Counted from the first letter of the stretch, positions 18,482-24,400 are shown. The stretch is DNA of 64,000 nucleotides from Raillietiella orientalis (GCA_036172245.1 JAYWIR010000023.1:2976001-3040000); one strand, 5' to 3'. A program made the numbers and translations. The notes: a model not told the origin generated them from the letters alone.

Positions 18482-21400
18482 CTGTAAAACAGCAATGTAC
18501 TTCAACTTCAGAACCCTACCAAAATACACACTGCGGACTAACTGTCTACACAACCACATACACAGACGGACAGGACAGTAAGCTGAACAAGTACCCACAC
18601 AAGAAGATACTTACTGAGGGATGAGTGGTGGTGGAAGACCAGTTCCTGTAGGTCGACCTGGAGGAGCAGGAGGTACTCTACCAGTGAGGTCCGGAGGTCT
18701 TGAGGGTACAGAAGGAGCTGGTCTGTTTGTCACAGCAGTTGTGAGAGTAGGTCTTGCACTGGTAGTCACAGCAATCTTCCTGCTACCTATTGCAGGGGAT
18801 GGAGGAGAAACTCGGGATGTGCTAGTGAATAGTGAAAACAATAAAATGCAGAATCATGATGCGTTCCTGATAGTACAGTTCATCGTTGGTGGAATTCAAC
18901 CAGTCATTCTTCACTGGTGGAGGTAATGGCGTAGATACTGTAGACATGGATACATCACTGATGATCCTCAAGGCCTCTTTGCAAGCATGGTGCATTTTGA
19001 GAAATTCTTCTCGACGCCTTGCTTCCTCAGCAGATTCTTCCATCATCTGGTTTTGATCACATTGAGCATAAAGCTGAGCAAGCAATTCAGCATTGATGAA
19101 GTCCTTGGTTTCATTGATAATGAGGTACATGATTGTCTTAGGCACCAGATCCAGCGTTGTTTTGGTTACAATTTTCATGTAAGAGTCGACTAGATTACGG
19201 ATTGTCTCCACTTGTCTCTCAAGCTGTGGATCCAAGGAGGAGCTAGATTCCACCAGCTGCCAACATAAAACAGTCGCTGCCAATATAGAATCCAACCTGA
19301 TCTCCTTCCTGTTGATTATACTGCTTTTCAGGGTAAACACCAGCACGAAGAAATGATGCCTTCCAGGAATCCACTTCATCCTACAACAGATGTAACAACA
19401 CATCGCTTGTTCTACTTTCCTCACTTGATTTTCGCAACTCAACTCCAATGTTTTCAAATCTTTGTATACGTTTTTCCCATCAGGGAAAAAGAGGGCAAAT
19501 GTCTGCCGTCGAGACATGAAGCCAGCTTCCACATCCCTCATTTTGAGTCCATCAAGAGGAATCATGTACTTCTTATCTTTTTCCTGAATATTTCGAACCT
19601 TAAAAATCTTGCACTTTATTTCTTATCTACCTCCTCATCTTTAAACCAGGATAGAGACTCAGACGTAAGCACAAACCAATAGTCACGGGATCCACCTTTC
19701 ATGATACCCAAATTGTGTATGCACATCCAACCCTTACGGATGACCTGATTCCCTAATCGTTTCCCTGATTTAGCACTAGTCTCTGTGCTTTGTTGAGCAC
19801 TGCCCAAATCATCCAGTATCAGTTCCAGTATTTGACTGCTGTACACTAACTCACTTAGCAAACCCAATGAAGTCTTCGTGGTTGGTATTCATGTAAGCTA
19901 GCTCACAATTGATCAATAAGATGATCTGATCTTTGCACAGTTGCTCACGCTCACGGATGTGTGTTGTAATAATACGTTCAGTTTCCTCACGCAGTCTAGG
20001 ATAACGATTCATTTTCTCTGTGCACTGGCGTATCACATTGGAGAGCTCAGTCACCACTAAGTCGACACACTTTAAGCTGGGTGATTTCATACGTTCAATT
20101 TGCCGCTTCACGATAGCATCAAATGCCATATCGGGTGTGAATAGGCCAACACGAATTCCTGGAACATAACATTATCAAAATTACCTGATATGGATGCATA
20201 CCGTGAATATTCTGGATCGCGAACGAAATCTCTTTGCGCAGCTCCTTCTCATCAAATTCCATTTTTACAATTTCAAAGGGAAATCGTTCATGAAACAGCC
20301 GATTAATTTTGGCTCCTCCAGAAAGCTCATTTGTATTCACTTGACTTGATCCAGATCCTTCTATACACCTATCAAAGTCAGTTTGCAATTGCTGAATCAT
20401 CTGAAGCATAGCTTTAGTCTTTATAGTGGGATCGTTTGGACGGAAGTTCTTGAATTGTTCCACTTCTTTTTCCAAAGAGAAGAGTTGCTTCTGTACAGGA
20501 ATTTCTGTCCAATCTCCACGTATAAATTAGTTCGGTTCACCTGAAGTTTGTCACGCAGTGCTGGTAGAGTTTCCTTAATATGGTTAGTGAGTTGTTGGTT
20601 GAGAACTTTTTGCAAATGGGGAGTGCCCATGCGGTCGGCAATATGTCGGTATGCTGGGTGGCTAATACTAGTGATTACAAAACAATAAAAGATCATTTTC
20701 ACCTAAGGAAAAACATTCTTTCTGCTTGCAGTGCTGCACGAATATCCTTTTTGCCATCAATATCCTTTTGACTTCTGTTCACCACTCCAACATATCCTCT
20801 TCTGAGAGGAAGCAATCGATTTTCTAAAATATCCCGTGCATCAGTACCTTCATCCATCAAATCCAGTTTGGTGATGACTCCAATAGTGCGCAATCCTAAT
20901 TTGGAACAACAATTAGATGTGACGCTCATTGTTCTTCATTCCCTTCCACCCAAGAAATTAAAAGCAGCTAGCAAAGAGGCAAAAAATAAAAACAAAAACT
21001 AAAAATGGACCTTCCTGATCGACTTCTCTGGCCAATTTTAATGCATCACTTGTCGCTATGTCAGTATTAGCTGGAGTCACAGCTAAAATAAGGCAATTCT
21101 CTTTACGAATGTACTGCAGTAACATATTTCGAATCTGCATCTCAATGTCATTTGGCTGATCACCAATGGGCACTTTGGTCAATCCAGGAAGGTCAATCAG
21201 AGTTAAATTCAAAACTAAAAATATAACGAAGGAAAAAAATGAAAATAAAAACAAACCAAAAACAAAAACAAACCAAAAACACTTTAGAAAATATAACAAA
21301 ACAACAACAACAACTAAATGGATACCACTACAAAGCACGTTTTCTATGCAAGATTGCCCTAATACCCTCAGGATCCACCATCCGGGCCATGTTGAGAGCA

Positions 21401-24400
21401 TCACTGGTTGCTAAATCAGTATTGGCAGGAGTAACAGCCAAGATCAGGCAGGTTTCTTTGCTAATAAAATTCAAGATCATGTCCCGAATCTGGGACTCGA
21501 TATCAGCAGGCTGATCTCCAACAGGGACTTTTGTAAGACCCGGTAGATCAATCAGAGTAATATTCAACACTAATAAGGAATGTAAGGTTTACAATTGTAA
21601 CAACAGCATTTGCAAAACAGAGATCAACGGACATCACCATAATATATCAAAACATACCATGTGGAGAATAGATCCTCAGATTAATGGGAACATTCGAGAT
21701 TCCTTTATTGGTCCCGGTAAGACGCTCTGTGTCAACTTCAATTTCTCTTCGTATGTCTTTAAAATCGGTAAATATCTGACCCTTACAATGGAGGAATTCT
21801 CCATACTCTGGAAAGTATTTAACAGTATGGTATTTTAAATACCAGACTATACATGTGTTGTCTTACCTTTGGTAGAATTAATGAGTTGAAGAATTAGTGG
21901 CCTCCTCGTTACAATCCCTGACCCACGTGGCAGAAAATCTCTGCAAAACTGGAGAATTAGGCATGCACACAACGAAAAATAGCTTCAAAATGAGATGTTT
22001 CAATGAATCTGCAGATTTAAAATTAATGCTTAAAAAAATTTTATACACAGGTATACGGATGTACAGGTTTTGATGATCAGCACTCAGGAAAAAGGAATGT
22101 CAGTTATTTAGTAATTTTGATTATGTGGGAAATGTGTATCAATTTAAAACAAGTACAACAAATCCTCTAGGACAACGTAGTACTCTCTTATAAAAATACT
22201 TGTTATGTTTTAAAAGCTAAATCATTTCACTCATGCTTTCCGGGAATAAATACATGGAAATCTTTTCCAGGGAGTTTTTGATGATGCAGTTTTCAAAGGA
22301 GATACATTTCCAAATAATAGAACCATACACCCAGGCACATGAAACAACTAATTGTAGCAGCATTAACATCAACAGAATGGAAAGTATAGGTTCAAAACTG
22401 AGGTACAGCTTTTCCAGTGCAATGAACCTGAGTCCTTGAATCTGCCTCTTTCTGTTAGCCCTTCAAAGCACTTTGGTGCCAGAAGGCTATCGCATATTTT
22501 CCATCAGAGACTAGCTTGTAGTATAGCACTCCTAGTTAGTGAAGTTTTCGTAAAAATTCTACCATTGTTTCAAGACATTATAAAATTCAGAATTCAACTA
22601 AATTCTTGTATTCTATTACCTCTAAATCGAGAATTTCACTTTTATGCAATTTTGTTGCACTAATATAAATATCTACACAATTTAAAATGACTGAAATAAG
22701 CAGTTCGTGAAATAATTCAGTCGCAAATTATTGTAATATGGATGATGACAACATGCATATATCAAATTTACACATCTTTATTCAGGATCATCAAACTGAT
22801 GTGGAATTACACATATGGAGATATTAATTTATTTTAAAATGACACCATTATTACTTACAGATTGTAAAAAAAATTATTGTCTTAACGACCTATCTGAAAA
22901 CTGCAAAATTTGTGCAAATTTACACTTCTCTGCAAAAACATACCATGAGAAATAAATTTTATTTGAAGTCATCTATATAACCTGGGTAAATGGCAAAATG
23001 TTCATCCATTCCATGTGGCAGAATGTTCATTGTGAAAAAAAAAAAAGCTTAACAATAGCAGCTCTTCATAGATCACCGGCAATTACCTGAAGACAGCTTT
23101 TCACACATGTGAACATGTTTTATTTTAAACAGATGTTTAATAACAGAGAAGTCCTATAAAAACTAAAATCAAGCTTGATCTATAAATGATTGCAATTCTA
23201 AATGAGTTCTTTGCTTCCAATTATTATGCAGAAGACTAGTGAGTGATTCATCTGCTTTTCAATATTGATCCAGTACAAAAATCATACATTTACATTACAT
23301 TACCACGTATGTTCTTATCATGTTTTGCTTCCAAAAAAAGGGCAAGGGATAATGAAACAGATCTTCTTTCTTTCTTATCTTTTTAAATGATAGAGTTGGA
23401 AAAACAAATGAAATCATTTAAATTTGGAAAAAACTCAAGAAAAACGAATTTCATAAAAAATTTATTCTCTTCTTCACTGTATGTGTGGGATTCTAAAACC
23501 ACCAAGGCATATGAAAAATCTATTTCTAAAATACCATAAATTACTCTACTAATAACAAAAACAACCAAGTACCACTCAATCCATGGAAACCTGTTCTCTT
23601 TTGAAAAAAACTTTCTAAATTCTGTTATCAATTTGCATAACATTCCATTTTAGCATAGATTGCATTTTTTTGCAAGCATATTGCATGGGAGAGCATTTAT
23701 TCAAAGGGGCTCATCAAACTTTCTACTTTCATATGTAATACATGTAATCATGATACAGTGGAAATGACTCTCATTTGAGATTTTGTTACTGATAACACCT
23801 GAAAATTGGAATCTGGAAATTGGATTGCCATTTTTATACATGGTCTGTGATGCAAGAACATTAGTCACTATCACACACTTCATTCAGTAAAGCTACTTCA
23901 GGTAAGATTAAGATCTCTGCGCTATTTCAAGCTTTCCATATCTTATACATCAATGACTTATTTCATAAAATACACCTCTTTATTTTTTATTTTAAATTAC
24001 TACACACCATCATTTCACTGCATTTTCCCATGTCACTCAAAGTAATCACCAATATTCCTAATAATCATATAGGAATCCTCTATAGTTTCAAATCTTATTC
24101 GTGTTGCACACAACAAGCACAGTTTCAAAATGCTTGATCCACACTACAGTGTTGTAACTTTAATGGCATCACATCATAAATAGTAGAAAAATCAAAAACC
24201 TGCTGCAACAAGTAAAGTGTTTTGAATACAACACTGAACTACAAAAGAATGAAGAATGGACCTAATACAAAAAATCTACACAAAAGAAAGAACCTTCACA
24301 ATAGAAATTTATTATATAATAGATAATATACAATGTTCACATGCTCATGTTGCTGCACTGCTGGTCCAAAATTCCTATACTGAACTGGAACATCATTCAA

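Follow-up and report, generated by a model that had tools for sequence, protein, structure and literature searches.

The window analysed here is a stretch of 64,000 nucleotides (nt) from Raillietiella orientalis (GCA_036172245.1, JAYWIR010000023.1:2976001-3040000), and all positions are counted from its first letter. Using tblastn with full-length dynamins together with a search for splice sites, we identified on its minus strand a dynamin gene of 14 exons, counting both copies of exon 4, whose stop codon ends at 18611. Ungapped tblastn matches cover residues 1 to 757 of an 870-amino-acid (aa) dynamin (P0095) in order and are followed by a proline-rich tail. The full-length matches carry PF01031, PF00169, and PF02212, as given by the precomputed Pfam annotation of those matches, with the later exons of the window assigned by alignment. 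The gene is a classical dynamin, with a Dynamin_N domain containing DxxG and collinear middle, pleckstrin homology (PH), GTPase effector (GED), and proline-rich regions. Its fourth exon is present as two tandem copies, 4a and 4b, and we consider it highly likely that these are alternative, mutually exclusive exons of a pancrustacean dynamin that yield two isoforms of equal length. Each transcript would take either 4a or 4b, giving dynamins of the same length that differ at 15 residues, and the choice between the two would presumably be regulated.

As seen from their borders, both copies are preceded by AG and followed by GT (ttattag and gtatta around 4a, tttttag and gtccat around 4b). Both have phase 1/1, beginning at codon position 2 and ending after position 1. 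At the DNA level, 143 of the 204 bases are identical (70%), and, counting the split codons, the encoded segments differ at 15 of 69 residues (78% residue identity). The 61 base differences are distributed over first, second, and third codon positions as 15, 6, and 40, respectively, and correspond to 30 synonymous and 15 nonsynonymous codon differences. DLPG (the G3 motif) is found in both copies, and a 16-residue stretch and SDAL are unchanged between them. The Pfam profile Dynamin_N (PF00350) matches both over profile positions 102 to 157 of 168, scoring 59 and 61 bits where the cutoff is 27. An open frame of 67 codons is expected in only 0.76% of random sequences at the local composition, and the copies recover each other by tblastn with an E value of about 1e-33; therefore, chance resemblance is excluded. 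No third copy or remnant of exon 4 was found in the window by tblastn at E values up to 50.

The substitution pattern was evaluated by the Nei-Gojobori method over the 67 whole codons, which gave a proportion of synonymous differences (pS) of 0.80, a saturated value, and a proportion of nonsynonymous differences (pN) of 0.15. Among 63 other exon copies, 18 columns are invariant and 33 are conserved at 95% or more, and 4a and 4b each retain every one of them (18 of 18 and 33 of 33). In comparisons with exons of the same type from distant relatives, pN was 0.10 to 0.13 for 4a and 0.15 to 0.18 for 4b, with pS of at least 0.70; therefore, both copies have stayed constrained. As judged from these codon comparisons, the data show both copies to have been under purifying selection. 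An earlier note on this DNA had described two 204-nt exons of phase 1/1 with AG/GT ends, 15 of 69 residues apart, all of which we reproduced from the sequence, and had suggested that both are under selection, which the pN and pS values and the conserved columns bear out. The comparison of nonsynonymous and synonymous rates that it had proposed as a check was thereby run, and it points to constraint on both copies.

Transcript evidence was obtained from one public run, X1, a metatranscriptome with a word share of 0.07 and four contigs over 7.2 kilobases (kb) at 85% likeness. In one contig of 211 nt, 21452-21365 (4 mismatches in 88 nt) is joined to 20894-20772 (none in 123 nt), so that the last 88 nt of 4a run directly into the first 123 nt of exon 5 and the 470 nt holding 4b are omitted. 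This contig establishes use of 4a and shows that splicing can bypass 4b. We also observed four other RNA joints in X1, all five being in agreement with the gene model (Table 1). From the conservation of 4b, we infer that it would be used in this species as well.

Table 1. Coordinates of the dynamin exons and of the introns around exons 4a and 4b
Feature	Position	Strand	Basis
Exon 1, coding part	25449..25618	-	tblastn with insect dynamin P0060 (from residue 2 at 25609); RNA joint 25449/21940
Exon 2, 74 nt	21867..21940	-	RNA joints 21940/25449 and 21807/21867; gene model
Exon 3, 150 nt, last base opens a split Val codon	21658..21807	-	Gene model; acceptor backed by RNA joint
Intron 3, 88 nt, 5' of the exon cluster	21570..21657	-	Gene model
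Exon 4a, 204 nt, A-type (NIT...KETC...ATSDALN...)	21366..21569	-	Pfam, RNA joint to exon 5, exon tree
Inter-copy intron, 151 nt, long U-rich tract	21215..21365	-	Gene model
Exon 4b, 204 nt, canonical B-type (NLT...KENC... and a further 13 residues)	21011..21214	-	Pfam, gene model, exon tree
Intron 4b-5, 115 nt	20896..21010	-	Gene model
Exon 5, 193 nt, G4 region (TKLD)	20703..20895	-	Gene model; acceptor used in RNA contig
Exons 6-13, introns of 40-55 nt: middle domain, PH, GED, proline-rich tail, stop	18611..20661	-	Gene model; RNA joints at introns 19584-19630 and 18822-18876

The sole transcript evidence, a contig that skips 4b, would also be expected if only 4a were used here and 4b were a silent relic without visible decay, or were used too rarely to matter, an alternative that we regard as unlikely. 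Of the gene's 13 donors, only that of 4b (AAG/GTCCAT) has C at +3, and this oddity, which we take as a sign of a regulated exon, could alternatively mark an exon on its way out. The end branch of 4b in the exon tree described below is longer than that of 4a (0.27 versus 0.16), and five copepod-like loci (L001, L002, L010, L011, and L019) have no B-type copy, showing that B can be lost in crustaceans. Nevertheless, the frame of 4b is open (chance, 0.0076), the AG of its acceptor is intact behind a strong pyrimidine tract, no conserved column has been lost, and its low pN was obtained against distant B-type exons with pS saturated; moreover, the X1 RNA is far too thin to show an absence of 4b.

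A search with the 4a protein returned some matches of about 200 bits, twice the single-match ceiling of a 67-residue query. Eight ab initio models hold both copies exactly 68 aa apart, namely, those of a cockroach (P0001), an ostracod (P0002), a cricket (P0003), the copepod Tigriopus (P0006), Daphnia (P0007), a centipede (P0011), a woodlouse (P0012), and a spider (P0016). Such proteins, and the open frame of the joined 4a and 4b, are what would be seen if both exons were constitutive and spliced in tandem into an 895-aa dynamin with a repeated G-domain core. We consider this extremely improbable. The X1 contig joins 4a directly to exon 5, and the full-length proteins checked from contigs of about 3 kb carry one copy each, whereas the two-copy proteins all come from genome annotation; a doubled G3 strand and switch II would also not be expected to fit the Dynamin_N fold. 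The eight two-copy models are most likely annotation errors caused by an in-frame duplicated exon. Four further double matches were left uncounted. In Tetraodon P0004, near-identical copies (the first residue differs) lie 217 residues apart, and in Saccoglossus P0009, identical copies lie 153 residues apart, both being probable model or assembly artefacts. In Steinernema P0015 and Medioppia P0018, the copies are about 480 to 570 residues apart in over-long proteins, which are probably fused paralogues.

Mutually exclusive use of the two exon types is seen in the RefSeq isoforms of other arthropods. The isoform sets of aphids, whitefly, thrips, leafhopper, and locusts hold both types. A residue-level comparison was made of 11 same-species pairs, eight of them from aphids and the others from an adelgid, a leafhopper, and a whitefly; in all 11, the two isoforms have one copy each, are of equal length, and differ only at residues 132/133 to 197 (136 to 200 in one pair that is 3 residues longer). 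The mutual exclusivity proposed in the earlier note is thus backed by the joint from 4a to exon 5 and by 11 of 11 either-or pairs elsewhere, while the part of it that concerns use of 4b in this animal was not seen.

Several observations weigh against mutually exclusive use in this animal. The RefSeq isoforms are computed models and not experiments. The X1 contigs are 96 to 99% like the window and so are from this species or else from one very closely related to it, and both 4b and the junction from exon 3 to 4a lie outside the sparse coverage of the four contigs, which says nothing on 4b use; because that coverage is near nil, the argument for 4b use here is one of conservation. Inclusion of both copies (895 aa) or skipping of both (759 aa) keeps the frame open; therefore, frame-dependent decay cannot enforce exclusivity. 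The inter-copy intron, at 151 nt, is long enough for splicing, and the 4b donor is the least consensus-like in the gene. Pairing among the three introns of the cluster was not above that of dinucleotide shuffles (fractions at or below the observed energy of 0.93, 0.28, and 0.91), and the fold of the whole cluster region was no better than that of dinucleotide shuffles (z-score, +0.97).

The splice sites of the cluster are all ordinary GT-AG, and a plausible branch site may lie about 25 nt from the acceptor of the inter-copy intron. Inverted repeats within 20880-21680 are at most 13 nt long, which is the chance level. The 4b donor can pair at 21005-21017 with 21185-21197, at the start of 4b (12 of 13 positions paired), and at 21009-20 with 21442-53, in the middle of 4a (11 of 12 paired); by a rough estimate, about 0.2 such inverted-repeat pairs are expected by chance. 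Overall, in the window sequence, we found no mechanism of exclusivity among steric hindrance, incompatible spliceosomes, frame-dependent decay, and competing RNA pairing. The introns of three metagenome loci (L006, L008, and L012) are 80 to 100% identical throughout, too similar to reveal conserved boxes, and there were no other alignable introns.

To place the gene, exon 4 was masked in a tree of 41 full-length dynamins built by a quick method. The window protein fell inside an insect/ostracod clade with a Shimodaira-Hasegawa-like approximate likelihood ratio test (SH-aLRT) support of 98, adjoining two ostracods (90), and centipede, nematodes, mollusc, annelid, hemichordate, and fish lay outside this clade. 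Its best identity was 81%, to a locust. From this placement, we conclude that the window gene is a pancrustacean dynamin.

The exon copies themselves were placed in a maximum likelihood tree of 65 copies and 69 columns. Copies of A type form a clade of 31 rows (support, 98/95) that contains window 4a, the insect A isoforms, centipede copy 1, Daphnia copy 1, one ostracod copy 1, and all of the copepod-like copies. Exon 4b lies outside this clade, in an unresolved canonical group with nematodes, mollusc, annelid, and fish. Consistent differences between A and B types occur at positions 132, 145, 158, 168, 183, 188, 192, and 196, six of which are detailed in Table 2. The window pair fits this signature, with 4a upstream (I132, T168, and T183, with no K188 and no E192) and 4b downstream (L132, K188, and E192). 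The same order, A upstream of B, is found in the cockroach, cricket, and centipede and in L006, L008, and L012. In Daphnia copy 1, the first half is A-like and the second half B-like, and the spider pair is too divergent to place.

Table 2. Residues that distinguish A-type from B-type copies of exon 4 (dynamin-1 numbering)
Position	A type	B type
132	Ile	Leu
158	Asp	Varies, Ser commonest
168	Thr	Mostly Asn
183	Thr	Asn in most arthropod B rows, Thr in others
188	Gln, Asn, or Met	Lys (21/21 arthropod B rows, 8/8 outgroup rows)
192	Ser, Gln, or Met	Glu or Asp in all arthropod B and outgroup rows

Since the A clade spans the centipede and pancrustaceans and the order from A to B is common, an old duplication is favoured; these relationships would place it in the ancestor shared by myriapods and pancrustaceans or earlier still. 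An alternative origin was also weighed, in which the copies arose in this lineage, or were homogenised there and diverged again, in which case orthology with the A and B exons of insects and the centipede would not hold and the A-like residues of 4a would be convergent. We judge such an origin improbable. The free tree separates the copies, 4a has the A state at positions 132, 145, 158, 168, 188, and 192, where 4b is canonical, the synonymous sites between the two are saturated, and the shared order of the copies would have to be accounted for as well. Nonetheless, the approximately unbiased (AU) test counts against the old origin, in that a tree with 4a and 4b as sisters was not rejected (log-likelihood difference, 7.9; P = 0.38), the 69 columns giving the test little power. 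The crustacean cluster is also dynamic, with loci of two A-like copies, a three-copy locus (L015), and the mosaic copy 1 of Daphnia. For this lineage, an old shared origin of the pair is therefore favoured, as read from tree and signature residues, but not proven.

We also evaluated how the exon is distributed in metagenome contigs, in a scan that used the single 4a peptide and no profile and that therefore under-samples clusters which are distant or contain only B. Two or three tandem copies were present in 9 of 80 loci, and all 19 copies are 204 nt long with AG/GT borders. None of the 80 loci formed an isoform pair, with the same flanks and a differing exon 4. The five copepod-like loci named above hold two copies, both A-like, and L015 holds three (2485-2688, 2882-3085, and 3233-3436), again A-like without a canonical B. 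The upstream copies of those five loci and Tigriopus copy 1 form a distinct subtype (98/86). The exon cluster clearly gains and loses copies within crustaceans.

Within the protein collection, the best identity was 87% for 4a and 85% for 4b. Among the matches listed, A-type rows come from locusts, crickets, cockroaches, bugs, aphids, whitefly, thrips, crustaceans, and a centipede, and the dynamins of moth, butterfly, beetle, wasp, ant, bee, and fly are of B type only. The A exon may have been lost in Holometabola, as far as protein rows, rather than genomes, can indicate. The earlier note had spoken of the two dynamins for this animal; the pair is better described as an old arthropod feature, with both types already contained in RefSeq isoform sets.

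The exon aligns to residues 130 to 196 of the dynamin-1 G-domain chain 2x2e_A, a stretch that we take to begin with the strand before G3 and to continue through switch II, a helix and a strand that follow it, the trans-stabilising loop, and one further helix. It holds G3 (D136 to G139), switch II, and Asp180, and the isoforms differ within dynamin-1 residues 129 to 197. The 15 differences between 4a and 4b are at positions 132, 145, 150, 154, 158, 160, 162, 163, 165, 168, 181, 188, 189, 192, and 195; D136, G139, and D180 are common to both copies. These positions suggest that the chemistry would be the same in both isoforms and that the differences would surround switch II and the helix after the trans-stabilising loop. 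Asp180 in the trans-stabilising loop acts in trans, bonding to Gln40 and Ser41 in the partner G domain, and assembly-stimulated activity requires it (PMC3747075, PMC3561337), and the G interface is formed by both switch regions and the trans-stabilising loop (PMC5084822). The classical fly temperature-sensitive alleles shi-ts2 (G141S) and shi-ts4 (P171S) are reported to lie in or at the edge of the GTPase domain (PMC8001749) and, going by position number, may fall in the equivalent of exon 4. The earlier statement that this exon carries G3/switch II and the trans-stabilising loop was confirmed, since DLPG and Asp180 map within it. Its phrase "different GTPase cores", on the other hand, is overstated, because D136, G139, D180, and the full sets of 18 and 33 conserved columns are kept and the changes are at flanking positions.

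The two isoforms might thus differ in dimerisation-stimulated GTPase behaviour or in surface contact rather than in chemistry. Judging from where the substitutions lie, the difference could be in the ease or duration of G-domain dimerisation or in contact made by the helix after the trans-stabilising loop. For its assembly-stimulated GTPase activity, dynamin relies on dimerisation of the G domains, which is mediated by switch II and the trans-stabilising loop. A wider proposal, to which we give somewhat less than an even chance, is that the A/B pair would be a regulated switch at the G-domain dimer interface, present since the ancestor of centipedes, crustaceans, and insects, that provides two kinetically distinct dynamins and was lost in Holometabola, including flies. 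Were the loss real, it would explain why the literature centred on shibire never met the pair, and a genuine absence of the A exon from flies, moths, beetles, and wasps would make shibire, the best-studied dynamin of invertebrates, unrepresentative of arthropods.

The closest known system is that of the vertebrate exons 10a and 10b, which lie in tandem, have 46 codons each, and encode segments that differ at 14 residues. They are conserved across vertebrates, lamprey among them, and are reported to be absent from invertebrate dynamin (PMC2916854). As in DNM1 and DNM2, the pair described here consists of tandem homologous exons of equal length in a classical dynamin gene, appears to be old and clade-wide, and would involve a choice of one per transcript; the two pairs have diverged to a similar degree, at 14 of 46 residues in vertebrates and 15 of 69 here. 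In contrast to 10a/10b, which are within the middle domain, Dynamin_M (PMC4494069), the present pair, from another phylum, is in Dynamin_N, and the middle-domain region is here a single exon of 304 nt (20158-19855), as the earlier note had correctly contrasted. For the DNM1 pair, the cited mechanism is one of competing RNA structures (Suyama 2013, via PMC3923563), unlike here, where no such intron pairing exceeded shuffles. Dscam1, Mhc, and 14-3-3 zeta also have tandem duplicated exons of which one is used per mRNA (PMC3923563). The two copies of exon 4 resemble those clusters in being tandem duplicates of equal length and phase; docking and selector RNA pairings act in those clusters, and no significant intron pairing was found here. 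Should the pair be an ancient regulated switch, it would be the arthropod counterpart of the vertebrate dynamin paralogues and 10a/10b isoforms.

Among arthropods, the window pair corresponds to the RefSeq pairs of pea aphid (X4/X3), whitefly (X8/X7), leafhopper (X4/X3), thrips, and locusts, annotated as either-or, in having the same exon, 68 codons, and the A and B signatures, and window 4a groups with the A exons of these hemimetabolous insects. Unlike the insect B exons, which have Asn183, window 4b has Thr183, as nematode and ostracod exons do. Like the six A-only metagenome loci and Tigriopus P0006, the window has its 204-nt copies arranged in tandem at this same gene position, each bordered by AG and GT, and L001 copy 2 is 90% identical to window 4a. 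Unlike those crustacean-like clusters of two or three A-like copies without B, the window has one A and one B copy.

In the literature searched, a body in which most subscription journals lie outside coverage, we found no account of an alternative G-domain exon in any dynamin, in keeping with the earlier note, which knew of none for this exon. As far as seen, the either-or isoforms are present in public RefSeq records and apparently undescribed in that literature. For the window alone, the result is modest, being one more carrier of a pair already visible in public annotation. The pair corrects gene models, in that several deposited arthropod dynamins most likely hold both copies in error, and it offers a natural two-version test of how the surroundings of Asp180 and positions 188 and 192 tune dynamin.

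Regarding the remainder of the gene, exon 1 has in-frame ATG codons at 25618 and 25594, eight codons apart. The spliced model is open, and the product with a single copy of exon 4 has 835 aa from the first ATG and 827 aa from the second; the ATG at 25618 is probably the start, as the intervening residues align to the N terminus of insect dynamin. Eleven introns measure 40 to 59 nt and intron 1 measures 3508 nt, and the three introns flanking the duplicated exons are above the 40- to 59-nt set. Downstream of the 3' end of the dynamin gene, convergent with it and at a gap of about 670 nt, the plus strand carries exons of a helicase gene at 16036-17943 (Pfam Helicase_C_2, E value of 1.8e-14) with a long non-conserved tail. 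Elsewhere in the window, an exon at 38933-39541 on the plus strand matches Pfam DUF4487 (E value of 6e-23). A full-length U2 spliceosomal RNA gene (Rfam RF00004, 85.6 bits, E value of 1.7e-15) is located at 57973-58159 on the minus strand, in the most G+C-rich part of the window (54% at 56-58 kb versus 38% overall).

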